A stretch of 64,000 nt of DNA, from the NCBI GenBank assembly GCA_021613535.1, contig CP075493.1, positions 13,020,001 through 13,084,000 of the forward strand. The letters run 5' to 3'. A program made the position numbers and the translations under genes. This stretch comes from Adineta vaga. Lineage: Eukaryota; Animalia; Rotifera. The notes below the pieces were generated by a model. That model was not told where the DNA came from and did not search any database. It saw only the letters and a list, made by a program, of their open reading frames with translations. The stretch's first letter is position 1. Every line of letters starts with the position of its first letter. This document shows, piece after piece, positions 3,569 to 64,000 of the stretch.

Positions 3569-4118
3569 TTGGTCAATCAATCAATCGATTTTGTAACTGA
3601 TATTAAAAATGAAAATTTTTTTCTAATTATCGAAGATTTCATTAATAATTATGTTCTAAACCTTATTGATGATACAACACAATTACATTCAGTTTTCCTA
3701 TACTATCTGATGAGAATAGAATATGATCACGATGCAATCCCTATCATGTTATTCCTCCGAATAATGATCCAGAACCAAATATCGATCAAACTCAACTATC
3801 ATTCATGTATTCGCAATTGCTAAAAGAAATTTTACTTGAATTATCATGTAACGAAACTTTGAAAGAATTTCGAAAGAATAAATTGTTGATACATAGCGTG
3901 AAACATATCATCACGATCAATTGGAATTTGAAAAGATTGATGAATTTCGACAAAATTATACAGAAAATTTAGCTATTTGGTCGTATACAAAAGGTAGTTG
4001 TATTTATCAGAAACTTAATCATGTATTACGTATTGGAGATATTGAACTCACCGTTGAAATGGTTTCTTTCATCAACGATATTCATCGACAACTTGATTAT
4101 GAACGATTCTTTTTATAG
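3569..4118 (+). pseudogene. Decayed fragment of an ART-TPR family gene (pre-ART helical region)
   Basis: Frameshifted pieces 'QLSFMYSQLLKEILLEL' (~3790) and 'IDEFRQNYTENLAIWSYTKGSCIYQKLNHVLR...FINDIHRQL' match the region 'SFMWFQLLFKIL...IEDFSDKYDPNKAIAWYSQDTFLYRLLNRALR...YITDLHFQL' of the gene at 50314-54532. The fragment ends before the catalytic motifs. Confidence 0.75.
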
Positions 4119-4751
4119 TAGAACTTTTAATAGATGGCAAAATAATATTATATACATATATGATTTTTCTCAATAGAATTAGACTCAATTGCAGGCTCTA
4201 GTAGCTATGCAAACTCAACAGGTCCAACAACCTTCTCAAGCACAACAATCTGTAGAGCCTCCGCAAACATCAGAAGCCCAACAAAACTAATCAGATCGAA
4301 TATGTCAAACAACTCGACTAACACAAAAACTTTTTCAGGCTTAATATACTTTAGAGATTTGTATACATTGGCCATGGAGAAATATAAGATAAGATAGATT
4401 GTTACAGTTTTGAGGGTGAGGGTGTAGCTCAGCGTCTGTATCTCTTCTCTTCCTCATCCCCAAATAATATATCTACTTGATTAAGCTAATCATCTTCTTT
4501 TCAGGTACTCGAATTATATGTTTCATATTTCTATCTAGTACTACGTGACTTGGATGCAAGCAAATTTTCATACATGATCAAACATTTAATTTTTTCAAAA
4601 AGATCAAATTTCTACTTTTTTTCCCCATAAATGTCACGAATGGCAAGCTTTAATAAAAGGAAGAAAACTGTTGCTTGAACGTGTAACTAGATTATTATGA
4701 ATCGTCATAGAATTAGATAAAACCACGATTGAATCAACTTTGGATACTAAG

Positions 4752-22695: not shown

Positions 22696-23696
22696 TTCAT
22701 CAAACCAGACAACGAACAGCATCAGCTCGATTTTTTTCTGTGATATATTTTTCAGTTTGTTCATTTAATAAATCAATCAGGAAAATAAAGTTTCATTATT
22801 CAGCTATATATGATTATTTACCCAGTTGGTAATGAAGACTATACAAACATAAAATATCATAATTCAGCAATTTCTTGTCACTAAACAATCAGTATTCGTA
22901 CAAAATATAAAAGATCAGACAAGATTATAATAATTTTAGCGATGAAAATCATACTCAATCAAACAACTTATCTATCTTTCATATATTATCACTTTTCACG
23001 GCATTCATGAAACTATGAGTAGTAGAAAAGTCATATTTTTTTAGAAGAGTTCCAATGGTGCAAACAATTATTTTGATAGCTATACATGTGTCGTAATAAT
23101 CTTGAGAAATTTTATTCAGATATATACTAAAACATAATTTTAAATGTAAAAAAGATCTGTAATAACTAAATATTAGTTCGAACAATAAAATGTCGTTAGT
23201 ATTCAATATGAATATTTATTTAGCAAATTCACATAGAAAGTCGATAATCAGTCTTTCCCTGAACAACAATCATGTTAACACTGCAATGATTGGAAAAGTA
23301 ATGATATTTTTTTTTTCGCAAGAAAAACTAAAGATCCAATAAAAATAGACAAGCTTTTCCAGAAATTCTTATTTAATACTCAATCGATTTCTTTTCTGTA
23401 CGTTCATAGTCAGATTAGTCTTGATAACGAAAGAAAAGAAGTAATTTCTCGCTTGATTATGTGCTCTTCGTTTCAGTTACATGCTGATTTTACATATAAA
23501 TACATTTTATCTCACATATAATGATACACCTTATAAAGTATTGCTATGTTTCACAATATTCTTAAATGGGTGCTACTGTTCAAACGCAAAATAAGGATAA
23601 TCACATCGGTTCTGTCTTCAATACGTTTCCACACAGACATGCATTGTTTTCATTACTATCGTTAGTAATGATTACGGTACAATTTGTACAGCATAT

Positions 23697-24620
23697 TCAA
23701 AAAATGAACAAGCTTTTGAGTAACTCTATATTCATATAGTAATACACTCCACCGATGTTGTTGTAAATTTTTGCAAGATTACGACTATTAGTATTAAGAA
23801 GTTTTTCGAGCAAGTAATTTTTCAAAGAATTGAATTGCTTCTTGATATTGCCCTTGATTTTTATTTGATTAAGTACGATTTTATAAATCTGTTCTGTCTT
23901 GTTATTTTGACCCATATCATCCAGTAAATGCATGCAATTCTTTGGCATCATCACTGGTTGGTTAATGTCAAACTAACTCCGAATAACTTCTTGTTTCCAT
24001 CGATTTCTTTGATATCATGAATACAAAATACATTATGCATGGAAAAACGGACTTCATCTTCGTCCACGAATTGATGCAAATAATGCTACTGATTTATAAG
24101 GATCAACCTTTATATCAAAGATAATCCCCAGCAAATCTGGATTGCTTATATTATTCTCGGCGTAGAAGAATGACACTTCACGATCTCTATTTGCGGATAA
24201 AAAGTTATTAAATGAAATCAATCCATCTTTCGACTTCATTATTTCATCCAAATCCGTCATTGATAAAAAATCCCATTCGTACAATAATATCTCCATCCAT
24301 TCCTTGCAGAGCACGATTGAGCATATAGAGTACAAAAAACTTTCCTTTGTTTACCACCAAAAATAGGATTTCTTCGATAATTTGTGTATATATACATAAA
24401 AGATGGATCGGATTGGTCCAGTCTTCTTTTTGATCTTACAAACTCATGGATATATCATTTTGTTTATATGAATGAGTTCTCTGTTTCAGAGCTTGACAGA
24501 TTGATATGATTTCTATGGAGATACTTTTTTGTCACTGCTCGCAAGAACAAATTCGGTACATTGATCAATATATTTATCTAGCCAGACTACAGTGATATCT
24601 TGCATCTTCTGAAGTTCAAT
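23697..24620 (-). pseudogene. Heavily deleted and frameshifted receiver-like/ART/TPR gene
   Basis: Collinear fragments: 'QDITVVWLDKYIDQ' (~24600), 'QSDPSFMY' (~24405), 'GLISFNNFLSANRDREVS..LLGIIFDIKVDP..FASI' (24054-24240), 'EVRFSMH' (~24050), TPR 'LAKIYNNIGGVYYYM' (~23760). Confidence 0.85.
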
Positions 24621-25846
24621 ACACTGATGTCTATTTGTTCCAAGCAATATGTAAAACAGGCTCTTCAGTGTTAATAGTTACATTAAAGATTATAGTCCAC
24701 TTGTATTAATATGCTTGTTTAGTTATTTATAATGAAAATATTGTGAATCTAATGTTACTATTGCAAAATTATTTTCCGTATTATTTTCAACAATAAGAAA
24801 CGCTAACAATTAGATTTATTATTCATAAATAAAGAGAAAAAAAAGACACTATTTGAATAAGAATAGATAGATTAAAAAAGAATTGTTTTTCTTATCTGTA
24901 ATAAAAGAGAAAGAATAATGATAAAAAATTTATCTCCATTCCTTTTTTTTAATGTAATTGTAAAATTTAAAAAGTTGGTACAAAAGAAACATATATTGTT
25001 ATTCATTTATTTATATTGTATACAGAATTTACAGATACCGAATAAATATAAACTTGATAAAACCTTTTTACAGAAGTAATGTTAGACCTTCGTATTCATT
25101 TAGAAGCATTCAATTACTTTTATATTAAGACAAAAGAAATTACCACATAGTTCAATTATTTGTAATCTGAATGAATACTAATCATGGTACGTTGACCTAT
25201 AACATCCGAATGCATTCCTGTAGGATTTACTTGAATCCATTTTACTTGGAGTTTCAAATTTAATCTTGTTTTATGACATATCTATCATAGATATTTACTA
25301 GACTAAACTGATGTCATCAGCTGATCGGACTTATCTATAGATAATGATTCGATCATTCCGAATTTTTTTGTACTCGATAATCTTGACGGTGAAAGCTTTC
25401 ATTTGATCGTTTATCTCAGTTCTTTTTCAATTTTATCCTCGAACACAGATAAAGTGTAAATGGTTTAAATATTTAGACAAATACACTTTATACTGTCAAG
25501 GTTAATTTTAACAAGTTAATAGATGAAGCTGGAATACGTTACTGTACCAATTTTTCCATATGTTAATCAATTTTTAATGCAAAACGTAATTTTCTTTTTT
25601 CTTTTTTTCTCTATTAAACGCTACTGCATCTCGTAGTAAAAAAGAGAAATGTAATAGCAGATGATATATTTGTTGTTAGATATGTAAAATTAGAATGCAG
25701 ATAAATTCTAGAAAAAAGAGTGAATATATATTTTTATTTCATATTACACTCGGTATCGTGTACGCTTTACTCAATAGTGATTGAAATAACTCTCAAGTAA
25801 AAATCTCTTCTTCTCACAAAGAACTTTCAGATTTCTTATTATCATC

Positions 25847-38551: not shown

Positions 38552-39913
38552 TCAATCAATGATAACAGGAAATTTTTGAATTCGATGATTTTCTGAATCA
38601 ACAACGTAAATATTACCTTGTCGATCAAAGGATAAATCACAGGGAAAGTGAAGCTGAGTATTTCCATTTCCAGCTTCATCTTGACCAGCAATTGTATGAC
38701 CTTCTATTGCACCTGGTGACCAACGCATTATCTTATGACTCGACGAATCTGATATGTAGATATTATCCTGATGATCAATAATCACACTTGATACAAGAAT
38801 CGGTAAATTAGGATGTTCTATAGGAACTTGTCCATGAGCAACGAGAACACCATGCGTTGCATTTCTTATCCATTTCATCACTCGACCATTGTGAAAATCT
38901 GCTACATAAACTGTAAAATATTGATCGACAAAGATGTAACTGGGACCATAGAGATTATTCAATCCATTCCCTTCTTCAGTTCCACCTGCTACTATAATTC
39001 CATTCGTATCACCATATTTGTATCGTTTCACCACATAACTGTGTCGTTCAGAAATATACAGATCTCCATTTTTATCCATCGATAAACCCCAACAATCAAT
39101 AGTAATCATCATTTTCTTCGGATCTTGTTTATTTCGAAGAGACCATTGCATGACACGTTGATTATGATAATCACAAACGACGAGAAAATCTTTTTTCTTA
39201 TCAGGAATTGCATCTGTCGGTTCATTCAATCGATTTAGTTCATTTCCATGTCCATTTCCGCCCGCAACAACTTCACCATTCTCTCCATCGAATTTCCATT
39301 TTACAATACGATGATTTTGACGATCAGCTATATAAACATTTTGATCATCATCATCAACATAGATACTATGAGGACCATTCAATTGATTTAATTCGTCTCC
39401 CGCTTGATTACCTCCAGCAATTGTCAATCCCTCTTGTTTCCATGTTGTATTAATATCAATAATAAATGAAGGAAGTATTTGTTCTATGAAAAAAGGATTA
39501 TACGTTATTCATTTTTAAACCAAAGAAAAAAACACGAGATTATTTCTTTTATTACCTGTTGTTAATTGAATTTCTGTATTTGTCATTTCGGCTGTTGTTG
39601 TATATTCAATAGATGTTCTTTTCGTTTTAACAATAATTAGTGGAATTATTACAATTAAGATTAGAACAACAATGATGATTATTATCCATAATAATTTTCT
39701 TCTCCGAAAATATTCGCAGCTATAGAATTAGTAATTTCTGATAGATATGAATAATATCTCAATTCAAAACAATATACATACATTGTTCTTGATCGTACTA
39801 TAGTCGAATCATCTGCTTCAGACTGAAATAAAAAATAAAGATTAATTTATGTTATTTTTCTCGTTCTCAATAGGAAAAATTACATTTGAAATGCCAATTC
39901 TATTACTGCTCAT
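38552..39913 (-). CDS. Type II membrane protein with short Thr-rich stalk and C-terminal NHL beta-propeller (4 exons)
   Basis: Spliced: MSSNRIGISN-SEADDSTIVRSRTI-CEYFRRRK LLWIIIIIVVLILIVIIPLIIV KTKR..TT-EQILPS..WKQEGLTIAGGN. Final exon 39483-38552 holds all NHL repeats. Confidence 0.88.
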
Positions 39914-40570: not shown

Positions 40571-41756
40571 ATGTTATCCGAAGAATCGGTTTACGTCCAA
40601 TTGGGACCACGGAAATGGAAATTGGGAGGTGAATGTTTAAAGTTGTTGGAATCATGTAACCAATGTTTAGAAGCTGAAGACGTAGGTCTAGCTTTAAGAA
40701 ATCAATTGAATGAAAAAGGCTATATTTATTTAAAACATTTCTTACCAGAAGAGGATGTACTGAAAGCAAGAGCTACAGGTAATTCAAAAACAAACAAAAG
40801 ATATTAAACTGAATTGTTTTCGTTTCAGTTCTGGAATATATTCAAAATCTGAATGATACAGGTGTACTGAAAAAATCAGTATTTGCTTCAACGTATATGG
40901 ATGGTATCTTATCCATTGGTTGTGATGTTGGATGTATTCCATTTATGGAAGGAAAAAATCCTGTTACCAGTCATGCAGCGGTATTAAATATTATTGAAAA
41001 TCCTAAATTATATGATATTTTTACCAGCATTTTCCATGGTGTACATCCGGTTACATTTGATTATAAATGGTTAAGAGGTATGCACCAAGGTGGCAATACT
41101 GGTTGTCATATGGATAGAGTTTATATGAATCGTGGATCTTCTCAATTATTAACATGTTGGATTCCATTGGATAATTTAACGTTGGATATGAGTGTTTTAG
41201 CAGTTTTAGAAGGTAGCCATCGAATAGATAGAATAGATGATAATGGATATACAAAATTACAAAGTACCTATGCGAATATGGATGTTGATAGAGATCAATT
41301 ACAAGGAACTGGCTGGTTTACAGAAGATCCAATGGAATTCTATTACTTAAATGAAATGCCTGAAAGGAAAAATACAGTTGAGCGTTCATTAACTCCTTCA
41401 GAACCTATTTGGAAAACAACAGGTAATTCGAAATAGGATTGTGCAACCTGAAATATTTGATCTATTTCTTTTCTAATTTTATAGCTTTCTCAGCTGGTGA
41501 TATTCTAATTTTTACGATGCGTACTATTCATATGTCATCCATTAATTTAACGAACAAACTACGTCTTTCTTGTGATACACGTTGGCAACCTTCGAATGAA
41601 CCAATAGATCCTAGATTTGGTCAACAGGAAACGAGTATTCCATTGGGTCATACTGAATTGAAATTCGGTCTTTATGCCAAGAACGATGATACAATAGAAG
41701 ATGGAAAAACAACAATGGAGCAATGGCGAAATAAATGGGGTTTTCCAATGAAATGA
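40571..41756 (+). CDS. Phytanoyl-CoA dioxygenase (PhyH) family Fe(II)/2-oxoglutarate dioxygenase, 3 exons
   Basis: Exons 40571-40778, 40829-41422, 41485-41756. Motifs KGYIYLK, TGCHMD (HxD), LTCWIPLD, VLEGSH, GDILIF..IHMS..N...RLSCDTRWQP. Confidence 0.88.
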
Positions 41757-42590: not shown

Positions 42591-45500
42591 ATGGATAATC
42601 TAGGAGATCGAAAGCAACGACGAAATACATTCGTCAAGGTTTTTGGTGAATATAAAGCTCTGTTGATAAAAATGTTGCTTTTAACCAAACGTAAACGTGG
42701 TCAAACAATTGCTGAAATTCTACTGGCATATTTATTTTTGGCTCTGCTTCTTAGTATGCGTTATCTACTTTCACGTTCCTATAAACCTCCACTTCAAATA
42801 CCATCATTTCATCCATACGAACCTATGTTATTGAATAGTACAAGAGCAAATATGACCTACTATTTTCCTGGTAAATCTTTTTGTTTTATCGTAAAATTGT
42901 ATTCGTTTTCTATATTTATTTAGATAATCCATGCACGACGGCTATTGTAACCAATGCAATGAATAAAATAGCAGAAAAATTGACCGATTTTCCTAATAAC
43001 GGTAAATAAAAATAACAAATACCTTCGTCCTTTTTATTTTCTTTCAAAAAAAAACTTTGAGAATCAGTTCTTTGATATTCTCTACATTGATTTCTTCCAT
43101 ATTTTTGCCAATTCTGTTTCTATAGTGGAAATAATACCAGATCCAATGATATCTTCATTACCACAATCAACAATCGAATCAATCTATGCCTATATTTAAC
43201 CAATATAAATGCATCGTGTACAACGTCATCTCTAATGCCTGATGAAATTCAATATACACTACGAATGCAGGAGTAAGATTTTTATCTCTATGTATAGAAC
43301 GATGATCAATTGCATTTATATACCATGTAGAAATGGTTTGAGTTACTATCGAGCACAACAAGTGAAATTGAATGATAAAGATCTTTTGTGGAAAAGAGCA
43401 CCTGAGGATATTTGTCAAGGTCAGAACAAAAGAAAGAAAATTTGTATTGTCTAGAATGACTTTTTTCATGCATAGATAATTCCACTTGGATCAATTATAC
43501 AACACAATTTTTAGGAGTTCAATATTTTATTGATTTATCAATTATTGAATATGTTACAAAGACCAATCAGACTTCATCGAGTGTTTGTTGATATATAGTA
43601 TCGAAATCTTCGAAGATTGAATATGATTATTTTAGATTCGAATGAACCATTTTGGATGTCCTGAAGTTTATTTAGATATATTACATGGTGGATTTAGTCT
43701 TTTTATTCCATTATTTTATTCAATTATCTATTTAGTAACATTTATTTTAAATGTTGGATATATTGTTGAAGAACGAGCGAATAAAACTAAAGTAAATTTA
43801 TTAGTAATGACAAGAAAGAAAAAGACTATTTTCTTGTCTTCATATAGGAATATTTGCGTATATTTGGACTTCGAACATGGGTGAATAATTTCGTATGGAT
43901 AACACGATCTATGTGCATATATTTAATTTTAACGTGTATTCTAACTGGTTTGAGTGTCACATCTTTATCATCGAATCAAAAGAAAGCAATTTTTAATTAT
44001 GTTCATTGGACAGTTCTATGGACGATTTTCTTTGTTTATTCAATTCAAGTATCAACATTTGCTATTTTCTTTGGTCAATTTTTCAAACGAGGTAAATGCG
44101 AGAGAATATGTTGAACAGAAAATATGGTGTTTTTTTCAGTTTTATTGGCGAAATTATTAGGTATTGTTCTTTGGATCATTACATTCATTGATTTCTATGC
44201 CAATGTTCCGATTGTTCTTCGATATATCTTATGTGTATTTCCAAATACTGGCCTTCTATTTTGCATTCAAATTATGCAACAATTTGAACGTCGAAGTAGT
44301 AAGTGTAGTAATATCAATATCAATCCTAGAAATCAGTTTTTTTTCCTAAGATGGAATTTTAACATTTAAAGAATTGTATTGGAATATATTTGATTATTCG
44401 TTCTTTATTGGATTATATCTTCTTCTTATGTTAATTTATTCAATTATTTATATATTCCTTGCTATTTATATTGAACGTATTAATCCAGGAGAATTTGGTG
44501 TTGCTCAATCGTGGAATTATTTCTTTAAAAAATCTTATTGGAAACCATTGACAATTCAACCGTTGGAAATGTTCAAGACTTCGTCTTACAATGAAAATCA
44601 TTGGATTGAAATGAGTTTAAGAAAGGAAAAGATTCATTCACCAGCATTGATAATTAATCATCTGACAAAAGTAAATCAAAATTGTATGATTGTTCATATT
44701 GATCTTTCCATCGGAAATTGTAGAAATTTGGTAAATTTACTGCTGTTTCTGATTTATCATTAGAATTTTATCGCGGAGAAGTATGTTCATTGTTGGGACA
44801 TAATGGTGCAGGAAAAACAACAACGACATTTATTCTTGTTGGTGAGTTCGTCTAAGACGTGTGAAGAATTGAATAGTTTCATTTGATTTTAAGGAATGCT
44901 GGAAGCAACAACAGGAAATGTGACAATTGAAGGTTTAGACAATCAAATATATATTGAAGAAGTTCGACAAAATCTTGGCTTTTGTCCACAATATGGTATG
45001 AAAAATCAATGAACAATAATCTATCATCTTCGATTTCTTGTTGTATAGATATTCTTTATGATGAATTATCTGTTGAAGAACATCTGCAATTAATTGCTAA
45101 AGTAAGAAATCAAAATGAAGTCAAAGGAATGCAATTGATATTTAGATGCGTCATATGAGTGAACAAACAATGAAAGAATCAATTGAAACAATTCTACAAT
45201 TAGTAAGTTTAAGTAATGATCGAAATACTTTATCGAAGAATCTATCTGGTGGAATGAAACGTCGTCTATCGATTGGTATTTCATTAATCAATGATCCAAA
45301 AGTAAAAATAATAATTCAATGACTTCATTTCTCGTCTTATATTTATTTGAAAGGTAATTATTCTTGATGAACCAACCAGTGGAATAGGTAAACTGAATTG
45401 ATCGACAAACAACATATATAATACTCAATTGTTGTTTTACAGATCCATATAATCGTCGTCTTATTTGGACAATTATACAAAAGCTGAAAGGAACGGGTAG

Positions 45501-48500
45501 ATGTGTGTTGTTAACAACACATTTTCTTGACGAGGCAGATGTTTTATCGGATCGAATTGCAATTATGAGTCGGGGACGATTACAAGCCAATGGAACACCT
45601 GACTTTCTAAAACAACAGATAGATGATGAATATCGATTAATCATTGATAAACAAGATGAACGATGTTCAAGTGCAAATATCAAGCAATTTATCAAAAGAT
45701 TCGTGAAAAGAGTGAAATTAGAACGTGAATCTGTTGATGAGCTTGTTTATGGAATAAAACGTGGTCAATCAAAAGAAGTTGGACAACTGATTGAAATTCT
45801 CGATAAAGAAAAAATGAACTTAGGAATTAAATCTTATGGTTTAACGATGATAACGATTGAAGATGTCTTTCTACGGTAAGATAGAAAGAAGAATATGAAT
45901 CACGGGGGGAAAATCGATTGAAATATTTATGTAGATTGGTCGAAGAAGAAGAAGAAGAAGGCGAAACATCAGCAAAAACAAGTACAAAACTTGATGATCA
46001 AGGTAAATAAGATTAGAATTTAGCAAAAATATGCATTGATTTATTTTTATTGAATTAGTTTTTTGTCAACAATACGAACGTGTAGATGGTGCTTATTTAT
46101 TCTTCAATCGTTTATGTGCATTATTAATTAAACGTTGGCATGTTTCTCGTCGACAATTAAGTTTATTCTTTGGTTTTTTTCTTCTATCAATTTTAATTGA
46201 AATTCTTGCCGTTGGAATTGTTCCAACTCCCCAAGAAATTCAATCAATTCTTCTACAAAATGAACGTGTTGATGATGCACAAGTGACATTAACTCCATGA
46301 TATACAATCCACAAACTATCGTTACTTACTCCAATGAAAATATGACCAATGTTCGAATGAATCTTCTCAATTATTTGAACAAGAACGGAGCTACTATTGA
46401 TGAAATCTTTACGAAAAATATTTCCACCTATGTAAAAGATAGATACACCCAATCTGCTAAAACATTTGTAAGTAAATATCAAATGGGTTTTGCAACATTT
46501 GTCAATGAGTTAACATTGGAATATGATGCATATTTTTCGACAGTAAATTATCATGCCATGCCAACAAGTTTAAGTGTTGCGACAAATAATCTTTTACAAT
46601 TTTATTCCAATTCAACATCGAAAAGAATTCAAACAACTAATCAACCAATTTTAACCACAACAAAAGCATCGACTTATATTGCAGAGATTTTATCAGTTCT
46701 TTATTGTTTTGAAGTTTTTCCGGTATCATTATTTAGTTTTTTGAATAGCATTTTATCAACGATTTTCATCGGAATTCTTCTATTAACATTGATTTCAGAA
46801 CGATTGAATCATTCGAAAGATCTTCAATTATTAACTAATTTATCACGATTTATTTACTGGTTATCAAATTGGATCTTTGATTTTCTTCTATGTTTAACTC
46901 TTTGTGTAATATTAACGATTATTATCAAAGTAAGTAGATCTTATACTCGAAGATACCAACGAAAAGATTCAAAAGGAATTTTATAATACCATTCATTAAT
47001 CGAAAATATCATATTATTTTAGATTGGTGCCGAAACAAATCCCAAAACTGATGCTGAAGTCTATATTTATCGTAGTAGTGAAGCAACTGGTTATTTCTTC
47101 TTGCTATTTTTTCTCTATACGGTAGCTTCACTACCATTAGCTTATGTTTTCTCTTTTCTTCCTCGAACATCGATCATTGGTTTTACGAATTTCTTTATTA
47201 TCAATGTAATCGGTAATATAATCGATGCAGTTATCAATTCTTTCACTATCTTTTCCGAAAATCGATCAGTATTGAGCGGTCCGAGTAAAAGTTATATTGT
47301 TGTCACATACATTCGTTGGATTCTTGCAAGTTTATTACCATCAGTCAATTTAAAACATGCATTATACAATAGTCAACTTCATGAAAATCGGCAATGTATT
47401 CGTATATTTAATATATATATTGGAACAAGTTTTTCATCGGATGAAAAATGGACTTCGATGAATAAACCGGGTATAGGTGCACAAATACTAATATTTTGTT
47501 TACAAACAATCGTATGGATATTGGTATTGATTTTGATTGAAAATCATCGTCGATTGAGACAAATTTGGCAACAGTGTAGATCGAAATTGGAAAGAAGATC
47601 TTTAGTTGATAGTGATCTATCTCATTGGGATGATTCGGTATGAATTCGTGAGGAGAGACGAATAGAAGGAGAATGTTTGTCTCTAATTTAGAAATTAGAT
47701 GAAGATGTTCGATATGAACGACAAAGAAATTTAAATGATCGAGAAACATTGAATAATTCATCGGTCATTGTTGCCCGAGATTTAATTAAACGATTTGAAA
47801 AAGGCAAAGGAAAACATCGACGAACTTATACAGCAGTCGATCATCTCAATTTTCATGTGCGTAAAGGAGCTTGTTTTGGTTTATTAGGTATAGAAAAAAA
47901 AAATGTATATTCACATCTTGTATTCAATAAGAATGATTTAGGCGCGAACGGAGCAGGAAAAACGACCACATTTCGTATGTTAATCAATGATATCAAAGCC
48001 ACGTCCGGTGAAATTTTGATTAATGGTATAAATATGACTGATGCAAAGGTTAGAAGATTTTCATTAACTTACATCAATGATTGTTTGCCTATTTTAATAG
48101 AAACAAGATGTAGAGATTGGTTTCTGTCCACAATTTGATTGGTTAATTGATGATTTAACTGTTCGAGAAACATTAATTCTTTTCGCCAAGTATAAACCAT
48201 TCTATTTCACAGTGAAAAGATCTTCGTCGTTTTTTTTTTCAGATTAAAAGGCTTGAACAAATCGGAAACGTCTCAAATATGTGAAAATATGATGCAATTA
48301 TTTGGTTTAGATATGTATGAAGATCGATGTGTTCAACGTCTAAGGTAAATCTGCAACTAGTAAATGATAATCAACAGGGAGATTTGTAGTGGTGGAAATA
48401 AAAGAAAGGTCAGTACTGCTATTGCGTTTATGGCCAATCCAACCTTGATCTTTCTGGATGAACCTACAACAGTAAAGCAATAATCTCATTTCGTTGAAAA

Positions 48501-49295
48501 TAATTATCAAAGTCATTCTATAGGGTTTGGATGCAGCTGCCAAGCGAAAACTATGGAAAGTCATTCGATCTGCTCGTGATCTTGGTTTGACGATAATCAT
48601 GACTAGTCATAGGTAAGCATTTTCTTACATGTGTACATTTCGTGCTACTTTTGATGAGAATATTTTTAGTATGGAAGAATGTGAAGCACTTTGCACAAGT
48701 AAATCGATTTTTCTTATGGCTCTTAAAATATTACTTTGATTTAGAATTGGGTATTATGAAATCCGGTCAATTCATGTGTTTGGGTAGTTTACAACATTTG
48801 AAAAATCGTTTTAGTACTGGTTATGCAATACAAATTAAAGTATCCAGTGAAGAGAATGTGAATCAAATTAAAAATGAACTCATTGCACAATTATCGGGCA
48901 TAGAATTTCTAGGTTTACTATTTATAGAGACAATTTTTGATTAATATTGATGTTTTTGATTATTAGATCAACACAATGAAATGCTCTTTTGTAATATTCC
49001 ATTTGTCAATAATAATCAAAGTACAATCAATATGTCAACAAACTTGGCTTGTATTTTTCAAATTCTCAATCAAAAGAAAGAAGAGAAGTTAATTGAAACT
49101 TATGCCTTAACTCAAACTACACTGGAACAAATCTTTGTTCAATTAGCTGGTAAAGATGAAGATCTTATCGATGATCAACAACAAGAACAAACAACACAAC
49201 CATATAATAATAATAATAATAATAAGGAACAAAGAAAATCTTCTAAGTCCTCGAATTCTATTGAATCATATTCGATCATAGTTACTCAATTCTAA
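42591..49295 (+). CDS. ABC transporter subfamily A, full length, many short introns; apparent frameshift at ~43195
   Basis: Two TMD-NBD halves. Walker [10 protein letters not shown] (~44795) and GANGAGKTT (~47941); signatures [10 protein letters not shown] (~45243) and SGGNKRK (~48390); Walker B LDEPT twice; TTHFLDEAD; C-terminal TTLEQIF. Confidence 0.9.
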
Positions 49296-50240
49296 TCATC
49301 AATCCACCGTTTGTTTATGACTATAGTGATGAAATAGATTATTTTGCTTTGTGAAATACTCATGTTTTACACGGTTATAAAAGCAAGTGTTGTAGAATGA
49401 TTTTTCACATCTTGTACTCATGTGGACAGTGATGGTGTTATGATGGGTATCTTCACTTGATTCATGACCACACCCTTCTGTTTTCGACATCAATCTCTGA
49501 AAAAATATGTGTCTGACAAATTTGAGCTTCAGATAGAATCAAACTTGAATTTTAAGTAAAACTTAGAAAGATAAAGAATATAGTACTCTATGGTAATTTA
49601 ATAGTTTGATTAACAAAAGGAGGAAAGCAGATATACCCGAGATAGTTTAGATATGTTCAGTTTTCATATGAATATAATTTTTTCGCTGAAGTACTCATAG
49701 TTTGAATAACTCATTGATCGTATAATTTTTGCTAATTAGAATATTTTTCGTGTTCACATAAATCTTTACAAACACGTTGTGTACTAGTGTGATGATCAAA
49801 TAGTTTCGTCCTCTCTTTATTTCTCCAATTTTATTCAAGCCTTGTAAATTACTGAAGAATGCAGATTCTCTTTAATTTATTCTTATGATTATCTGATATT
49901 TCATCATATCTTTGGGATACTCGTGCGACCTATCTTGTTTTTGTTGACCATTTACATTCATTTCAAAGGAAATTCTTGTCTAAATTAGGGAAATATCAAC
50001 AAACATAATAATACAAAGTCATTTTTTTATCTTACCTAAATTTCACCATTCATAACTCCATATCAACTATCAGCCTTATTCTAGTTGATTACCTTTTAGT
50101 ATATATCTCCCTTTAATATGGCGAAGTAGTAAAAAGATTAGATACAATTACGTCCCTAAATTATGTTCAATCCGTTATATTTTACGCCTTTTCGTGTGTT
50201 TTTATTTTTCAGTTTTTTTCAGATATTTTGAAACTCCCAT

Positions 50241-50313: not shown

Positions 50314-53300
50314 TTATCCTGAATTAACATAATATTCATAAACTGTATATAAAAACTGTATAAATGTTTGAAAAATAGAATTTGTTAATCTATTCTTCGT
50401 TTTTATAATATTGCTTTGATAATTTTCAATAAGTAAAGCATTTGGTATCGACATTCGTGATTCAGAGTCATAAGCAATTTGATAATAAAGCAAAGCATTT
50501 TCATAATTACTCATTTTATAAAATGTATTCGCAATTGTGTTGTATGTAAGAGAATTATATTGTCTATCATTCGAAAAACTATCAGAAGACGTACTATTTG
50601 GATTTTTTCTGTAATAAATTTGATCAATATTATCATAAACTTCTGTAAGTTCTCTTTTGTTTACCGTTAATTGTTTTAATCCTATCTCTAGAGCTTTTTC
50701 AAAATTTTCTAGCGCTTGATCACAATTATCCATCATAGCATACATTTCTCCTAAATCGTTATGTAATGATATAAGCTGAAGATCATCAGACGATAAATAT
50801 TTACATACAGCTTGTCGTGCCGTATCATTCATGTTTAATGCGACATCGAATTGGTTTAATTTGAAATACAGAAAACTTAAATTTTGATAGATCATGATTA
50901 TCTCGAAAGCATTTGAAGTTGGTGATATTAAACGAATTTCAAGTTCTTTATGATAATATTCCGCAGCGTGACTATATTCATTTTGAATTTTATAAGTAGC
51001 TGCAATGTTGTTATATGTAATAACAAGATTAGGATGATTTGATGGAAGTGTTCTTTGTTCAAGGTTTAGTGTTCGTTGAAAATTCGTTAGAGCCATAGCA
51101 TATTCTGATTGTTGAAAATAAATCATCCCTAAGTTGTTATAACTTTTAGTCAGTTCAATATGATTATCAGATTGTAATGTCTCCATGATTTCAACTTTAT
51201 TTAAATATGCTTCTATTGCTTTATCGATGTGACCTTTTGAAAGGTGTATTTCACCTAAAATATCATAAGCAGCGGCAAGCACGCCGTGCATGTTTAAACA
51301 TACTTGAAAAACTTTATTTACATTGGAAAATGCTAATTCAAGTTTGCCTTGTCTTAGATAAACACCAGCAATGTTATTATAAGATACAGCTAGGTCATTC
51401 GATTGAGAAGAAGAACATTGAAGTAGTATTTCTAACGCTTTATTATAGAAAATTAGTGCTTGACTGAAATCTTCTTGTTGACAAAATATAAATCCCATAT
51501 TATTGTATGTTTTAGCAATTTGAACAACATTCATTGGTATACATTTTTGTTGAATATTAAGTACTTTTGTAAAGATGTTCATTGCATTATTGTATTCATG
51601 AATTTCACGATAGGTAGTACCAATATTATTATATGTATTGATTAAATTCATATGATTGTCGTCCACAGATTTCATCTGTATTTTAAGACATGTGTAAAAA
51701 CATTCTAGTGCTTTTGAATAATTCTTTTGATGAAAATACGTCGATGCCATGTTCTCATAAGTTGTTGTGAGATTGAGAGAACCGGATGGTGATAAATTTG
51801 ATTGTATTTCGATAGCGTTTTCATAATTCTTCAGTGCCTTTTGATAATTTCTTTGTCTATGGTAGTTTTCACCTATGCATGCATATAGTTTGCCAAGTTC
51901 AGTCTTATTCTGTAGTTCTACTTGTATGTCTAATGATGATAAGAAGTTCTTTGTTGATTCAGCATAATTACCCTGTTTAGAAAATACAAATCCTATACAA
52001 TAGTATAGCTGTGCTACCTCAGCACTCACTACAGGATGTGTTTTCAATTGAATCTGAAGAGTTTGTTCATAATTATGAATTGCTTCTTGATAATTATCGA
52101 GTCTAAAATGTGTTTCTGCTAGATTCGAATACGTTAATACAAGTTTATGATGATCTTTATTCGGAAGTGTCAGCATAATTGCCAGTGTTGCTTGAAAAGA
52201 GTTCAATGCTTCGCATTTCATCTCTAATTTTGAACGAAATATTCCCATATTAAAATGAGTTGTAGCTAAATCCGGATGATTAGAAGGAAGTGATTCCTTT
52301 TGTATCTGAAGTACTTTTTCCATATAATCAAGCGCTTTAAGATAATTTTTCGTCACCATAAACAACTGCAATAGAATTGTATGACGCTGCAAGATCTGGA
52401 TGATTAGGTGAAAGTGATTTTGATCGTAATTCTAATGCTTGTTCAAAATAATTTACTGCTTTATCATAATTATTTATTTTGTAATAAAGATCTCCTAAGT
52501 TATAATAGATTGCTCCAGTATTTGGGTGATCCTTGTCAAATACATCCAAAAATATCATCAAAGCTTTTTCATAATATTCTATTGCTTCCTTGTAATTATT
52601 TAGATTAACATGAAGTAAAGCAATATTATTGTATGTTGTTGCAATTTTAATATGATTATATGGTAATGTTTTTAACTCAATTTCAAGTGCTTTATTATAA
52701 TTAACTAATGCTTCAGCGTTAGAACCGAGTTGACTGTTAACCAAAGCAATATTATTGTATGTCGCAGCAAGATTAGTATGTAGAGCAGGTAATGATTTGG
52801 ATTCAATCTTAAGTACTGTGTTATAATTTTCTAGTGAAGTTTGATAGTGTCCTTTATGCTTGTATGCCATGGCGATGTTATTATATGTCGAACCCATAAA
52901 AAGATCATCTGGTGATACATAGATTAGTTTAATATCACGCGCTTTTTCAAGATTTGCAATTGCTTCCTCATATTTACCGATTCTATCATTGAACAATCCG
53001 ATTGAATCGTGAACATAAGCAAGGTTAGGATGAGGATTTGGATTTAAATTTAATGCCATAGACAATGCTTTTTCGTAATATTCAGATGCTATTTTATAAT
53101 TACCTTTATTGCTATAGACATCTCCAATATTGCGGTACACAACCGATATATCGTCATTGTTATTTGATGATAATAAGTGTTCCAATAAAATTTTATTGTA
53201 TTTTTCGGCTCTATCATATTCGCCCATATAAAATAGAACGTTACCAAGATGCATGAGCGTTGGTGTTTCACCGATTTCTTCTTTAAAACTATCCGTTAGT

Positions 53301-54532
53301 TCTTTTAATTCCGCATTTTCTTCATTCCGTAATGTTAACTCTACAGACCATAGTTCACCAGTAACTTCTTCAACGTTTTCTATTCGAAATATTGTGCCGA
53401 TTGTAAATAGTACTTCTTCTTCATCCGGAATGATACCAAAATCTTTAACATTAGCAAATGGTTGATTATTGGTAGTCAGATCAATTGTGATTGTAAAGAT
53501 CACACCTAAATAATCACAAGGTCCAGTCTGGGTAAACGAAGAAGCGGTTATGTACGATGTACTAGTGGAAAAAAATGTATTCACTGAAATGTATGCATTT
53601 TGATTATCTTCTATTGCTTTTATGTCCTCAATAGACATACGTTGTCCACGATATACAATCATTTCATTAGTCTCTGCTGATTGAATATATTGTTGATGTA
53701 ATTTTTCCAATTGAAAGTGAAGGTCTGTAATATAAAATCGAAATTTGTAAATAAGATCAAAATTTTCTGTCCGAAGAGCTCGATTCAATAAACGATAGAG
53801 AAATGTATCTTGACTGTACCATGCTATTGCTTTATTAGGATCATATTTATCCGAGAAATCTTCAATTTGTTTCGTAAATTGTGCACTATTTGCATATTGC
53901 TTTCGACATAAGTTAATCATTTCAGCTTTAGTATTATCTTCATGTCTCATATGAATTAAAATTTTGAATAATAATTGAAACCACATAAATGAAACACTTT
54001 CTTTATCCATATATTTAATTGAACGTTGTTTAGCATCTTCACTCAATAAACTCATGGGTAAAAAGTGTCTCAATTGTATTTGAACATCTGACGTTAATTT
54101 TGAGAAGAGTGCATCTTTTTCTGTAAAAACATCTTGAACTTTAGGTTTGTAGGTATTGGACCAAAGATCATGCTTGATTTTATCATAGCAAAAGATATAA
54201 ATCGATATGATTTTCGATAAATGGTAGATTTTAGGTACAAGATTTTCACCAAAGTCACCAGAAACGATTAAAAAGATTTTTTCTTCTGCCGTACTGGAAT
54301 TTACATAATACATACATTTATCGATGGTATCAAAAGTTATTAAAGAATTAGTTATAGAACGTAATTTGTTAGCCATATCCAAACAGTCATCTGTTTTGTT
54401 AATACAGGAATCCACCCATACAACTGACAATTCTTCTACGTTTTCGTTATTATCGAAATTAAATTTATTTGTTTCGGGAAAAGTCGATTCTCGAATATAA
54501 GTTTCCGAAGTAGTCGTTGGGGGATCAACCAT
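50314..54532 (-). CDS. Receiver-like domain + mono-ADP-ribosyltransferase + long ~42-aa TPR array (~1,400 aa), split by one frameshift at 52346-52350
   Basis: ORFs 52337-54562 and 50314-52392 overlap and continue the same TPR. N-terminal VVWVD..IFLIVSG..IYIFC; ART motifs VYRGQ, FFSTS, DEEEVLF; roughly 20 TPRs of the type HPDLAASYNSIAxxY...Y.KAL..Y.KAL.I. Likely start ATG 54532. Confidence 0.88.
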
Positions 54533-55799
54533 CGTAATGAGGATGTGAGGAAATATATTCAATAGTTGCGTTATTGATACAAGTGAAACGATCAGCTAGC
54601 TCGATGACTAATCTTCAATTAATCTTAATTCTGAAATAAAAAAATATTATCATACAAGCCATCATTACAATAGCATAATGAGGTGTGGGCATGAGTGAGG
54701 GCGATGAGGGCGAGGGCAACAATGGGAGTGCTACGAAGAGGTTTCAACCGAGATAGTTTATTTGAAACTTGAAAGCTATTTTCAATTGAATTCAAGTTTC
54801 AATTTAAACACTAATCTTCCTACTTACTATATAACGTGAAAATCTACTTTTTCATATATCAACCATCCTTTCAGTGTGGATTTTATTGATAATGAAAATA
54901 ACAGTGTGTGTAATAGATTTCTTTTTTATTCTTATCATACACTGTCAATAAAGGAGCTACTATCGTTGTTGGAAAAAGAATGAAAACATACTGAAGAAAA
55001 TGTCTAAGGAACAAATAAAATACATGATATTCTTGATTATTATTTATTGCGTATTAGTCATAAAATGCATCTTTCTCTCTCATATATGCTGCGCGACTTA
55101 AATTTACCGAACATGAATCTTTCATCAGTACCTATATCAGCTCCTGACCTGGGTTAAAAACATAAAAATTTAATTTATACTGAATGGAGTCATTCTATAA
55201 TAGAAGTAAACAGTCTGCATCAGAGGTTATAGAAAAACTTGTGTTTCAACTAAAATTAATCAAAATAGTTATACCGAAAATGATATTGTTCTAAAATCGA
55301 TTACAATATATTTTATCGCATCGACTGCGGATGTCGGACATTTTTGGTAACAAAAGAAACGGTAAGCTTTTTATCATCAACATATTTTTTAAAATAGATT
55401 GGAATTTATCTTCCTTTGTTTGACATTACCTAGTAGGATAACTGTTTGTACATTATATAATATGCGTTACTAATTAAAACAGTTGTTTATTTATTTCTTT
55501 ATACTACGTACAACTGTACAATTTTTACATTTTTTTTCTATCTTTTCATCGTAGCAATAATATGATAACAAAGTAGATCTTTTCAAATGTAGAAAATGTT
55601 TGTTTAAGGGCCAAAACAAATTATCATAGCTTTTTATGTTACAGAATTGAGCATTTAGAAATGATTTTTTAAGCATATGTTGATTAACCCAAATCTTTTT
55701 CTCTATCTAGTGAATATATTTATTATATAAATGACATTCTTCTTCTCAAAAATCTTCATTACATATACAGAAATATTCAACTGACTGCAATTATCTATC

Positions 55800-56645
55800 A
55801 TGCTGATCTTTAATGAAATTTTTGACGATATTATAGTTCAACCACTCTATCCGCCACGACCTATTCAATCAACTGTTTGACTATTTCTGATGATTATCTC
55901 TATATCATGTCTCATTTTTAATCTTTATCATCTGTTAGCAGATCGAATACAATATAAAATTCTCAATAATCATGTACTTATACTTTTACTCTTGTATAAC
56001 TTCATACAAATTCTAACCGACATACCTGCACACATTGCTTATTAATATATCGGTATTATTTGGCCGTCAATGTGTCCACTATTGCATATTTTGTCGATTA
56101 TTATCTATTTACCACTTGTTTTATACTATTAACATGGAGTTCATTGGAACGACATATTCTCATTTTTCATTCTCAATGGTATAATACAAATTTTAATCGT
56201 TATATCAGTCGTTATATTCATTTAGGATTGTGTTGTATCTATCCATTGACATATTATCCATGTAAGAATTCATATGATATAACTCTCCTGTTTCATGTAC
56301 TTGCAAAGAAACGACACATGCATCAACAACTGACATGAAAAAAAATGGCAAGATGGCAATTCAATTATTTAATATTTATTGTTTATATGACGTACCTAAT
56401 GGTAGATAGTTCGCAATTCAAATCGGTCAATATCTAGCTGATGATATAGTTTTGGTCAAAGTGCGACTGTTTGGCTCAATCCATTATCGTTTAGTATGTC
56501 ACTATTCATATTATTCGTATGTTTAGGTAGTGTAGAAGGCATTAAAGAAAAGTTTAAAAGACTTCTAGCACGTCGATATAATGCTGTGATAAGTTCGTCG
56601 AATACTATCACATTAAGAGCGATCGGAATTCGTCTAGCAATGGTA
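55800..56645 (+). pseudogene. Decayed orphan GPCR
   Basis: Pieces 'ISCLIFNLYHLLADR...LNNHVLILLL..FIQILTDIP' and 'DYYLFTTCFILLTWSSLERHILIFH' with in-frame stops and frameshifts. Confidence 0.75.
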
Positions 56646-57022
56646 TAAATGTCAGGTTTAGCGTCAATTCTGACGACTTTAATGATTGCTCTATAGTAAG
56701 AAAATAAGTATATGTGCTACTGATCATATAGGACGATTCTAGTTGATCAGTGAAAGTGTTGAAGGTATCAAGAATGGCAAAGTAATTTCAATTCAAACTT
56801 TTACATTCAATCGAAAGAAAATATATGATTTCATTCTTCCGAGTTTCGTCTTTCGCTGAATCTCTTATGAAAACATAAAAGTGATTGAAGTAATGTATTC
56901 TGTTTTTTTCTTAGTCAACTTTATTTACATAACAGAACGAAAAAAGAAGAAAAACCTCTTCTTCAAACATCTGCTCATATTCAAAAAAAACAATAACAAT
57001 TTTTATAAATCTGAATTAATCG

Positions 57023-58730
57023 ATGGCTGCTGCTGCTGCTGCTACTACTACTACAAAAACTATTCCTCACCGTTTTTTTGATGCTGACGAAGAACCTACT
57101 GAGAATTTAGCACCGATCAAAGGCTATGAAAACTCACCCCTTGTCTCATTAAAAGAAGCCGTTAAACCAATTAAATCCTTACTTCCTGATCTTGATTCAA
57201 TGGTCGAAATAGCACTACGTAATTGTCGAGAACCAAAAGATGGATTAACACAAGATGAATCTGCTTCAATTCATATATATACAATGCAATGGCCTGAACC
57301 TCATCCAAGTTTATTCACATTACTTAATCGAAATCTTCGATTAAAAACTCGAGTTTCATTAACATCGTGGTTTCTTTTTCTCAAACTTTTATTTACTGCA
57401 TTATATAAACTACCTTCCTTTGAAGGAATAGTTTGGCGTGGTGTTCGAGGAGATTTAAGTAAATATTATAAAGCAAACGATCATATTTGGTGGGGTTTTA
57501 GTTCATGTACTGAAAAGTTGGAGATCATAGAAACATTTATGCATTCAAAAACGAAGCGAACCGTTTTCAATATTGAATGTAAAACTGGAAAATATATTCG
57601 TTCTCATTCACATTTTCAAGATGAAAATGAAATTCTTCTTCTTCCTGGAACTTACTTTCGAGCTATTGGTAAAATAGAGATTGCAAGAGGAGTATCGCTT
57701 ATTCATTTACGAGAAAGCAATCCTCCTTATATGACAATTGCTTTGCCTTTCAATGATTTAACTGATTCAAATCGTAAGTTCTTTTTCATTCTTTCTTAAA
57801 AAATTCGTCGTCTTCTTCTTCTTCTTCTGTCTCAAAGGATCTAAATTTAAACAAGAATGCACTATTGTTGCTGGAGGAACTGTACCTGGAAAAAAACAAA
57901 ATCCACTCAGTTTCCCCGATGGAATCTTTATTGATGAAAAGAAAACAATCTTTATTGTCGATAGAGGAAATAATCGTGTTGTTCAATGGAAATGGAATGC
58001 AAAAGACGGAGAAACCATTGCTGGTGGAAATGGAAAAGGAAATAAATTAGATCAATTGAATTATCCAATTGATGTAACTGTTGATAATCAAAATTATTCC
58101 ATCATCATTTCTGATCGAGATAACAGTCGAGTAATTCGGTGGTTAAATGATGAAAGACAGGACATTCTCATCGAAAATATTAAGTGTTGTGGTTTAACCA
58201 TAGATAGAAAAGGCTTTCTTTATACATCTGATTCTGACAAACATGAAGTGAGACGATGGAGACTTGAAGAAATGAATAAAGGAAGTGCATTAATGGCAGG
58301 TGGTAATGGCAAAGGAAATCAACTTAATCAACTTGATTATCCGACTTTTATATTTGTTGACGAAGAGCAATCGATTTATATTTCAGATTGTGGAAATCAT
58401 CGTGTAATGAAATGGAAGAAAAATACTAAAGAAGGCATTGTTATCGCTGGAGGAAATGGTCAAGGAAACCATCTCAATCAATTCTCATTTCCGGCAGGAG
58501 TCATTGTTGATCAGTTGGGTCAAATCTATGTGTCTGATTTGGGAAATGATCGAGTCATGCAATGGCGTGAAGGAGATCAAGAAGGTTCAGTTGTTGCTGG
58601 TGGAAGAGAAAGAGGAAATCAATTGGATCAACTATTTCATCCTCGTGGTTTATCATTTGACTTGGACGGAAATCTCTATGTTTCAGATCGAGGAAATCAT
58701 CGGGTTGTTCAGTTTGAAAAATTGCAGTAA
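57023..58730 (+). CDS. Mono-ADP-ribosyltransferase - NHL beta-propeller fusion (2 exons, 547 aa)
   Basis: Exon 57023-57773 is the ART (ASIHIYT, LNRNLR, VWRGV, WWGFSSCT, QDENEILLLPG). GT-AG intron 57774-57837 joins in frame (C|GA) to exon 57838-58730 (SKFKQECTIVAGG.. continuing into ORF 58056-58730 NHL repeats). Confidence 0.9.
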
Positions 58731-62989: not shown

Positions 62990-64000
62990 TTATTTTGAAA
63001 TCAGTTCAAATTTTTGAATTCGATGATTCCAATAATCCGCTACATACAAATTTCCTTTAAGATCAAATGATAGACCAGTCGGATGTGACAATTGGTTGGA
63101 TTCAATTCCTTTTCCATTTCCACCAACAATTATTGAACCTTCTTCTTCTCCTTCAATCCATCGCATTACTCGATCATTTCCGCTGTCAGCCACATAGATT
63201 TGACCAGAATGATCAACAATGACACCTTGCGGATTAGACAATTGTCTAAGACTATTACCTCTCCCATTTCCTCCAGCTACAATAATGCCTACTTTTGCAT
63301 TTCTAATCCATTTCATAACGCGATGATTTCCCCAATCTGAAATATAGATTGAACTCTCTCCGTCGACAAAGATAAACGTAGGACCATTGAGTTGATTACG
63401 ACGATTTCCTCTTCCATTTCCTCCGGCAACCACTGTTGAATATGGTTCTCCTTCTTTCCATTTTCTCACTTCATTCTTTTCTTCATCAACAATATAAAGA
63501 AATCCATGTTCATCGATTGTCAAACCCCAACAGTGAATATTTGGTATGAGAATTTTTTCAAATGCTTTCTTTTCTAAGGACCATCGAACTAGTCGATTAT
63601 TCCAGAGATCAGCAATGATAAGTGACTTATTTTGTCTGTCAATAATTAGATTAGTCGGTTGATTTAACTGATCATTACGATGTCCTTTTCGATTTCCACC
63701 AGCAATTATATGACCTCTCTTTTTATTCTGTCTCCATTGAATAATACGATGGTTCGATGTATCAACGATATAAACGGTTTTATCATTATCAACAAAAATT
63801 CCTCGAGGTCGAAATAGTTGAGTCAATTGTTCGCCTTGTCCATGACCTCCAGCAACAGTTATTCCATGAGATTTCCATCTAATTTGTTCTGAAAACAAGA
63901 CAAATTTCATGAAAATAAAAAGATTATACAAACAAATACTTATTTGTTTGATAGCATGATTATCCGATTTTGCAGGTGGTTCATTTTGTTTTTCCAATTT
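62990..64000 (-). CDS. NHL beta-propeller protein, 5' part outside the window
   Basis: Final exon 63888-62990 with NHL repeats. A 51-nt in-frame GT-AG intron (63939-63889) explains the hydrophobic 'SICLYNLFIFMKFVLFS' in the ORF track. The upstream exon is open to the window edge. Confidence 0.88.
   Translation of the reverse strand, partial: KLEKQNEPPAKSDNHAIKQISICLYNLFIFMKFVLFSEQIRWKSHGITVAGGHGQGEQLTQLFRPRGIFVDNDKTVYIVDTSNHRIIQWRQNKKRGHIIAGGNRKGHRNDQLNQPTNLIIDRQNKSLIIADLWNNRLVRWSLEKKAFEKILIPNIHCWGLTIDEHGFLYIVDEEKNEVRKWKEGEPYSTVVAGGNGRGNRRNQLNGPTFIFVDGESSIYISDWGNHRVMKWIRNAKVGIIVAGGNGRGNSLRQLSNPQGVIVDHSGQIYVADSGNDRVMRWIEGEEEGSIIVGGNGKGIESNQLSHPTGLSFDLKGNLYVADYWNHRIQKFELISK

Follow-up and report, generated by a model that had tools for sequence, protein, structure and literature searches.

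The 64,000-nucleotide stretch of the bdelloid rotifer Adineta vaga analysed here (the window: assembly GCA_021613535.1, contig CP075493.1, positions 13,020,001 to 13,084,000; about 30% GC, short introns) contains two head-to-head genes, hereafter genes A and B, each of which joins an ADP-ribosyltransferase (ART) to a repeat domain, and the question raised by this locus is whether they form a divergent pair of NLR-like defence proteins, as an earlier note made from the sequence alone had suggested. The new aspect proved to be the family to which the genes belong and a pseudo-receiver domain found in gene A, not their pairing. By sequence and model, both genes encode ARTC (R-S-E) ADP-ribosyltransferases of cytosolic type that look catalytically intact, and their family is a new variation within the known ARTC enzymes. 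We regard them, with middling confidence, as expressed members of a bdelloid ARTC family of several hundred members, which would act as self-contained, constitutive cytosolic surveillance enzymes.

The complete R-S-E signature that had been read in both genes was located in full. In gene A, on the minus strand, VYRGQ lies at 53,656, FFSTS at 53,575 and D-E-E-E at 53,425; in gene B, on the plus strand, VWRGV lies at 57,431, FSSCT at 57,497 and D-E-N-E at 57,620. The residues are conserved among relatives: in the clade of gene A (clade A) the arginine is kept in 93, the serine in 88 and the glutamates in 92 and 91 of 94 domains, and in that of gene B (clade B) the arginine is kept in 53 and the glutamates in 56 and 57 of 57, with R, S and E overall in 53-57. 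Among representatives picked by the receiver profile described below, R-S-E-x-E is intact in 65 of 79 complete ART cores, the other 14 being without it. Profile and structure comparisons bear out the assignment. Pfam ART (PF01129) matches each protein with an E value of 2.5e-8, gene A matching ADPrib_exo_Tox in addition (E 3.8e-5), and the AlphaFold models, with pLDDT of 88.5 for gene A and 92.3 for gene B, match HopU1 (Z 14.1 for the ART of gene A and 16.8 for that of gene B), 6drh (13.9 and 16.4) and ART2.2 (13.7 and 16.0). No signal-like or tail-like hydrophobic stretch was found at either end of either protein, as judged by hydropathy, the best 19-residue segment of the first 40 amino acids scoring -0.57 in gene A and 0.32 in gene B, and that of the last 40 scoring 0.44 and -0.11; the reported lack of a signal peptide and of a glycosylphosphatidylinositol (GPI) tail is thereby upheld. 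The E-x-E motif confers arginine specificity in ARTC enzymes, and by analogy with these we infer that the products of genes A and B transfer ADP-ribose to arginine.

The two ART domains are remote from each other. BLASTP aligned them in short pieces only, with a best E value of 0.007 over 63 aa, and a profile comparison related them with a probability of 97% at 23% identity. On these comparisons they are members of distant clades, and not one enzyme equipped with two sensors.

The least expected part of the finding is the receiver-like domain N-terminal to the ART of gene A. The earlier note had described an ART-TPR gene; the order of ART and TPRs stands, but this domain had been overlooked, and the architecture is thus receiver-like + ART + TPR. 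Residues 33-157 are modelled as a (beta-alpha)5 domain (pLDDT ~87-98) that matches the receiver of MrkE (2qv0) with Z 13.4 and a root-mean-square deviation (rmsd) of 2.2 over 113 aligned residues, and dozens more response-regulator receivers with Z 12-13.5 and rmsd 2.1-3 over ~110-120 residues. It corresponds to no family in Pfam, NCBIfam or PADLOC, and its profile found no true relative in a sequence search of the solved structures in the PDB. The conserved residues of the domain are W39, D41, S91, C115 and K131. Their equivalence to receiver sites was set from the predicted strand ends and from the anatomy of CheY, which we take to place the phospho-acceptor, post-beta4 and Lys positions, the aligner printing no residue pairs. 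The Asp after beta1 is retained in 287 of 305 hits of the domain. The end of beta3, which is the phospho-Asp site of receivers, is Ser in 310 of 334 hits and Asp in none, the end of beta4 is Cys in 306 of 334 where receivers have Thr or Ser, and the Lys that follows beta5 in receivers is found in only 20 of 331. Given Ser instead of Asp, Cys at the end of beta4 and the missing Lys, the modelled domain is a pseudo-receiver with a conserved pocket of its own, which has the REC fold but not the phospho-acceptor set. KaiA and the plant PRRs are pseudo-receivers too. A TIR domain was absent from the top 50 structure-match rows of models containing the receiver-like domain, which was not searched alone, and a homodimer prediction of receiver plus ART scored 0.01.

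A profile of 27 sequences of this domain matches 4,492 clusters (50% identity) with E values up to 0.001, and the named matches of a word-index search are all bdelloid. A clade-A ART comes directly after it in 89 of the 96 representatives long enough to judge. The partner carried by clade A, in the 55 of 63 long representatives that were scanned, is TPR in 51, NHL with TPR in one, Ig in one and unassigned in two. The module is used in other contexts as well, among them receiver-ART-ART tandems (13 of the retrieved proteins), a clade-B ART ahead of receiver-ART-TPR, triple receivers, fusions to ubiquitin or Ig, and a stand-alone form of ~250 aa consisting of the domain plus helices; P0013, P0136, P0217, P0367, P0085 and P0271 are examples of such uses.

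Gene A is broken in the assembly. From its start at 54,532 (-) the letters of the window give a stop after 731 codons, and the TPRs resume in another frame to 50,314. The frame near 52,345 is intact, at full depth, in all four runs consulted (two of DNA and two RNA-like, the latter guessed to be RNA and seen as contigs only); hence the assembly is in error at this point, and gene A is a single open reading frame of ~1,400 aa. An intron at this position is ruled out by the same continuity. The NCBI model I4U23_004297 (805 aa) is a partial gene A, 100% identical to it over aa 1-410, that leaves out much of the TPR array, apparently as a way round the assembly frame break; the reads point to ~1,400 aa. 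The ~20 TPRs counted earlier after one ART come to ~22, of 42 residues each. RNA-like contigs cover pieces of gene A from 50,440 to 54,594, and the start codons of both genes lie inside such contigs and agree with those of homologues. All named protein matches of gene A, among the 120 best of 129, are bdelloid rotifers.

The splice of gene B was seen in one RNA-like contig (run X13), in which 57,299-57,773 runs directly into 57,838; the NHL propeller placed earlier after the second ART is confirmed by profile and by this in-frame junction (Table 1). The 58 longer relatives of clade B bear an assortment of partners, namely NHL, LRR, TPR, HEAT, MORN, FG-GAP, LamG, PDZ, Hsp70, ADP-ribosylglycohydrolase (ARH) and NB-ARC-TPR, and the 57 rows counted comprise 16 with LRR, 15 with NHL, seven with none detected, three each with ARH, LamG and Hsp70, two with NB-ARC-TPR and eight single types. 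A quick maximum-likelihood tree was built from 57 ART domains, with SH-aLRT supports only and leaving out P0154 and P0174, whose ART hits are split. Its starred branches force at least four changes of the NHL label and at least three of the LRR label. The branch of gene B itself (support 100) mixes NHL, ARH and LRR forms, and near-identical ARTs of A. steineri bear NHL, Hsp70 or nothing detected. Partner labels are still more clustered on the tree than in shuffles, as is expected of kin. Moreover, the identities of ART and NHL to those of gene B are discordant (44% and 60% in P0144, 62% and 52% in P0122), and the nearest relatives of its ART differ from those of its NHL. On the sequences, partner swapping is a trait of the clade of gene B, whereas clade A almost always carries TPRs. 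The interchangeable sensors proposed in the earlier note therefore exist as C-terminal modules exchanged within clade B, but an exchange of TPR and NHL on these two enzymes is not supported.

Three more NHL propeller exons are present in the window, at 1016-1960, 38552-39508 and 62990-64000, all on the minus strand. They were rejected as ART fusions, two of them being preceded each by a transmembrane and Ser/Thr-rich exon (recognized by eye, with predicted phase-1 introns) and the third running past the window edge. The phase-1 entry common to the NHL exon of gene B and to those two suggests that the NHL exon is a shuffled cassette.

Two further kinds of clade-B protein were observed. P0177 and P0178, two metagenome proteins (JGI), join a clade-B ART to NB-ARC and TPR, a true NLR architecture with an ART effector, on a branch outside the rotifer rows. 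ART-ARH fusions occur in three bdelloid species (P0125, P0126, P0131; P0400/P0402) and unite writer and eraser in one chain. Their ARH is most like Tri1, and its acidic TDDT and DDTDT motifs are kept in P0131 and lost in P0125 and P0126, which suggests that the ARH of the last two is a dead, ADP-ribose-binding decoy. A stand-alone ARH model of A. steineri has an accession close to that of an ART-ARH gene, whose contig is equal in length to its own.

The family is large. Arginine-specific ART function (GO:0003956 of the Gene Ontology, GO) is assigned to 431 genes of A. vaga and 366 of A. ricciae in Supplementary Data 3 of Nowell et al. (2024; PMC11258130), which is a published count. The three dead ART-TPR copies of the earlier note were traced as three degenerate clade-A remnants, of which one is only 29 aa long (Table 1). 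They were found with profiles and homologues, tblastn with the window's own domains having missed them. A weak ART-profile match at 45,898-46,122 lies inside an ABC-transporter gene and was rejected.

Table 1. Positions of genes A and B, their domains and the clade-A remnants in the window
Feature	Position	Strand	Description and evidence
Gene A	50314..54532	(-)	Single-exon open reading frame of ~1,400 aa: receiver-like domain + ARTC ART + ~22 TPRs
Gene A, receiver (CheY-like) fold domain	54062..54436	(-)	aa 33-157, (beta-alpha)5; AlphaFold model and structure match
Gene A, ART domain, clade A	53318..54007	(-)	R295, S322-T-S, E371-E-E373; Pfam and structure match
Gene A, TPR solenoid	50400..53270	(-)	~22 repeats x 42 residues, TPR_12/TPR_10 type
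Gene B, exon 1, clade-B ART	57023..57773	(+)	R-G-V, F-S-S-C-T, E-N-E; Pfam and AlphaFold model
Gene B, intron	57774..57837	(+)	64 nt, phase 1, GT-AG; the ART and NHL exons are in frame across it
Gene B, exon 2, NHL beta-propeller	57838..58730	(+)	Pfam NHL E 3.4e-30; whole protein 547 aa
Decayed clade-A copy, keeping receiver-like and helical ART portions	3569..4151	(+)	Frameshifts, stops; hidden Markov model iE 1.1e-5 and 1.4e-20
Remnant of clade-A ART-TPR junction, 29 aa	16112..16197	(-)	38.5 bits against <=28.1 in 10 shuffles
Decayed clade-A copy, keeping the receiver-like domain, an internally deleted ART and the first TPR	23681..24635	(-)	Stops, frameshifts; hidden Markov model iE 7.3e-14

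For the surveillance enzymes that we favour, the following model is proposed. The choice of substrate would fall to the TPR or NHL domain, through its binding of a foreign or damaged protein; after target binding, the ART would move ADP-ribose from NAD+ onto an arginine. The pseudo-receiver of gene A, along whose edge Asp, Ser and Cys are conserved, would be an allosteric switch or a docking module and stand in for an NTPase. The mark would be removed by ARH-type hydrolases, sometimes fused to an ART. Duplication together with phase-1 exon shuffling would create new specificities as old copies decay, and the family would be a constitutive, not an induced, one. In favour of this model are the modelled ARTC folds with their Arg-type nearest neighbours, the retained catalytic residues, the size of the family, the partner exchange and the discordant ART and NHL identities in clade B, and the three remnants within 64 kb. 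An immune role of genes A and B is plausible. A wider proposal, which is possible and is offered tentatively, is that bdelloids possess an undescribed NTPase-free innate immune receptor system, made of hundreds of toxin-derived Arg-ARTs with exchangeable sensors (TPR, NHL, LRR, HEAT, MORN) or integrated decoys (Hsp70, PDZ, ubiquitin, Ig, dead ARH), whose largest clade would be gated by a pseudo-receiver reading a phosphorylation, redox or nucleotide signal in its Asp/Ser/Cys pocket.

Several points weigh against surveillance. The role is proposed from architecture, and activity, target and phenotype are all predictions. The partner domains were read from gene models made automatically, and some of the one-off partners (7tm, PfkB) may have come about through artefactual fusion. 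In plasmid records, the bacterial proteins closest to clade B are Macro+ART proteins of actinobacteria, which align with 85-88% of the domain at 29-32% identity (best E 5e-24) and are not repeat sensors; in these (e.g. WP_251091506.1 of Streptomyces) the ART is C-terminal, behind the Macro domain, and there is no repeat domain. Gene A has Rotaria relatives at 53-58% identity, by which this copy is old and not recently turned over. With the rapid turnover that the earlier note saw in the dead copies, the huge family and the decayed copies agree and gene A itself does not. A point in favour of surveillance is that the distal TPRs are the most diverged part of gene A in comparisons with four Rotaria relatives (39-47% identity, against 53-63% for receiver plus ART). 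Between alleles, however, 32 differences, classified among 40 rows listed of 283, comprise 19 non-synonymous and 13 synonymous ones at a site ratio of ~4:1; the resulting non-synonymous per synonymous site values of ~0.4 in the TPRs and ~0.25 in receiver plus ART indicate purifying, not diversifying, selection on the gene A sequence.

Expression after pathogen challenge, a check for which published data exist, adds a further point against. In the HGT (horizontal gene transfer) file of PMC11258130, GO:0003956 is enriched only in sets of HGT candidates down-regulated by a fungus, with 6 and 19 of the 431 genes in A. vaga (false discovery rate 4e-5 and 1e-12) and 8 of 366 in A. ricciae. None of the up-regulated sheets in this file contains the term, and neither does the all-gene up-regulated file. 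Induction by pathogens is therefore not borne out. These enrichments are at family level. The main text of the paper contains no mention of these genes and considers down-regulation of constitutive defences or regulators possible. The fungal down-regulation speaks against effectors induced for antifungal defence, while for constitutive sensors it points neither way.

The same data have to be weighed for a role in endogenous signalling or stress, which we judge somewhat unlikely. The enzymes would then be writers with no immune role, their repeats being a substrate adaptor, and ARH-reversible Arg-ADP-ribosylation would regulate the rotifer's own proteins, for example in desiccation. A fungus that lowers rather than induces the GO:0003956 genes (PMC11258130) is consistent with this, and so are the low-level cover of the genes in RNA-like contigs, the maintenance of gene A across genera under purifying selection and the existence of ART-ARH fusions. 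In A. vaga, ADP-ribosylation GO terms are enriched among genes over-expressed in desiccation (PMC10809525) and among those down in spaceflight (PMC12220480), a signal also ascribed to PARPs, as the spaceflight paper does. However, the HGT enrichment file for abiotic stress in PMC11258130 does not contain GO:0003956. The supplement of Moris 2024 had no matching terms. Hundreds of copies, frequent pseudogenes and repeated exchange of partners, LRR and NB-ARC-TPR included, would be more typical of conflict systems.

Quite improbable, in our estimate, are repeat-gated effectors of cell death or NAD+ draining in the style of NLRs, in which a ligand would free an autoinhibited ART that hydrolyses NAD+ or modifies an essential host protein, so that the cell is killed or arrested. 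The nearest folds are toxins, the ART-ARH fusions recall the Tre1-Tri1 toxin-immunity pair, and the two metagenome proteins place a clade-B ART N-terminal to NB-ARC-TPR; but neither gene has an NTPase, autoinhibition is hypothetical, and many clade-B members (the seven of 57) are without any repeat domain. A co-regulated pair of sensor and helper with a bidirectional promoter, like paired plant NLRs, would agree with starts lying head to head 2.5 kb apart and with RNA-like contigs covering both genes, but is hardly probable at all. The enzymes are of distant clades, and for 431 genes in a set of at least 52,809 models (the highest id seen) chance predicts ~3.5 neighbouring and ~0.9 head-to-head pairs per genome, and more if the genes are clustered. 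As indirect evidence, the closest relatives of A and B in Rotaria sp. Silwood1, which are putative orthologues, have accessions thousands apart where same-contig neighbours differ by ~20. Metagenome scans for synteny returned either nothing or 29 loci with unrelated TPR proteins only. Chance, in a region dense in expanded families, probably accounts for the head-to-head arrangement, and the pair or system of the earlier note is not supported.

The surroundings of genes A and B are as follows. Just upstream of gene A, a multi-copy non-coding element at 54600-54820 shows a DNA contig depth ~4x that of its flanks and many loose ends. Between the two genes, 55800-56350 (+) carries frameshifted fragments that by eye resemble a rhodopsin-type 7TM gene, which tblastn and Pfam did not confirm and RNA-like contigs do not cover. 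Two paralogous giant single-ORF (open reading frame) receptors of ~1,550 aa with LDLa, EGF and rhodopsin-type 7TM occupy 4701-9335 (+) and 25790-30484 (+), and other open reading frames encode a vWA-domain protein (19325-20650, -), a PhyH-like dioxygenase (40813-41436, +) and an ABCA-type transporter (~44,900-49,300, +).

As to origin, eukaryotic mono-ARTs derive from bacterial toxins according to PMC3417536. Neither clade A nor the receiver-like domain had a match in plasmids or phages, word patterns, which reach close relatives only, picked up no clade-B locus among the genomes of GTDB or among viral contigs, and a viral fold search returned only generic ARTs at 10-21% identity. One supplement row of PMC12220480 lists an A. 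vaga ART with ciliate and haptophyte matches, and another an ART with GenBank "VIP2" labels. Rotifer clusters came up in the ESM Atlas, together with a ciliate ART cluster that matched weakly (0.77) and serves as a lead only. In the openly accessible literature searched, no description was found of a bdelloid ART expansion or of receiver-ART-TPR proteins.

Arg-specific ARTs of animals are known as a few cell-surface enzymes. In A. vaga, cytosol-type ARTs with modular binding domains make up close to 1% of the gene models. Thousands of sequence clusters contain the pseudo-receiver, for which Pfam has no entry. Should the surveillance model be true, the family would give an ancient asexual lineage NLR-like immunity by a route that needs no NTPase, and would bear on the open question of how hosts of this kind keep up with their parasites. 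This family may also be the main source of the "protein ADP-ribosylation" GO signal in stress studies of A. vaga, for which PARP and DNA repair are the usual interpretation, as 431 genes under the Arg-ART function term stand beside 542 under that process term in the supplement of PMC11258130.

Compared with known systems, the bdelloid entries labelled "NAD(P)(+)--arginine ADP-ribosyltransferase" in UniProt and "VIP2 [Adineta vaga]" in GenBank (ACD54614.1) are the same proteins or family under automatic labels, which are silent on the receiver fold, the two clades and the exchange of partners. With the Arg-type mono-ARTs HopU1 (3u0j), Tre1-type 6drh, rat ART2.2 (1gxy), XopAI and Vis, genes A and B have in common the fold (Z 12-16.8; rmsd 2.7-4.0 over 164-206 residues at Z 13.6-16.8) and the R...S-x-S/C...E-x-E signature; they differ in being only 18-23% identical to them and in being fused to repeats, gene A to a receiver fold as well. 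Pertussis toxin matches with Z 2.4 only, and cholera toxin is absent from the structure matches listed. Vertebrate ecto-ARTC (ART1-5) differ from both genes, which have neither signal-peptide-like nor GPI-tail-like stretches, and bacterial ARTC effectors differ in being secreted. The gene A domain shares the (beta-alpha)5 fold and the Asp after beta1 with receiver domains (CheY, MrkE), but at 7-16% identity and with no sequence-level match, and it sits in an animal, N-terminal to an ART; receiver-fold domains are, to our knowledge, regarded as absent from animals.

NLR/STAND receptors are defined by a central nucleotide-binding domain (PMC10197012), and neither a NACHT nor an NB-ARC Pfam family was detected in genes A and B, nor is there an unassigned gap between ART and repeats long enough for one. 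With the defining NTPase absent from their sequences, genes A and B are not NLRs, and the NLR-like proteins of the earlier note hold as to the enzyme-plus-repeats layout without an NTPase and as to a clade-B relative on NB-ARC-TPR, but not as true NLRs. Like the fungal receptors that combine NACHT or NB-ARC with TPR, WD40 or ANK, they carry an N-terminal enzyme and C-terminal superstructure repeats, and the combinatorial assembly and birth-and-death of fungal NLRs (PMC10197012) resemble this ART family; genes A and B may still act like NLRs.

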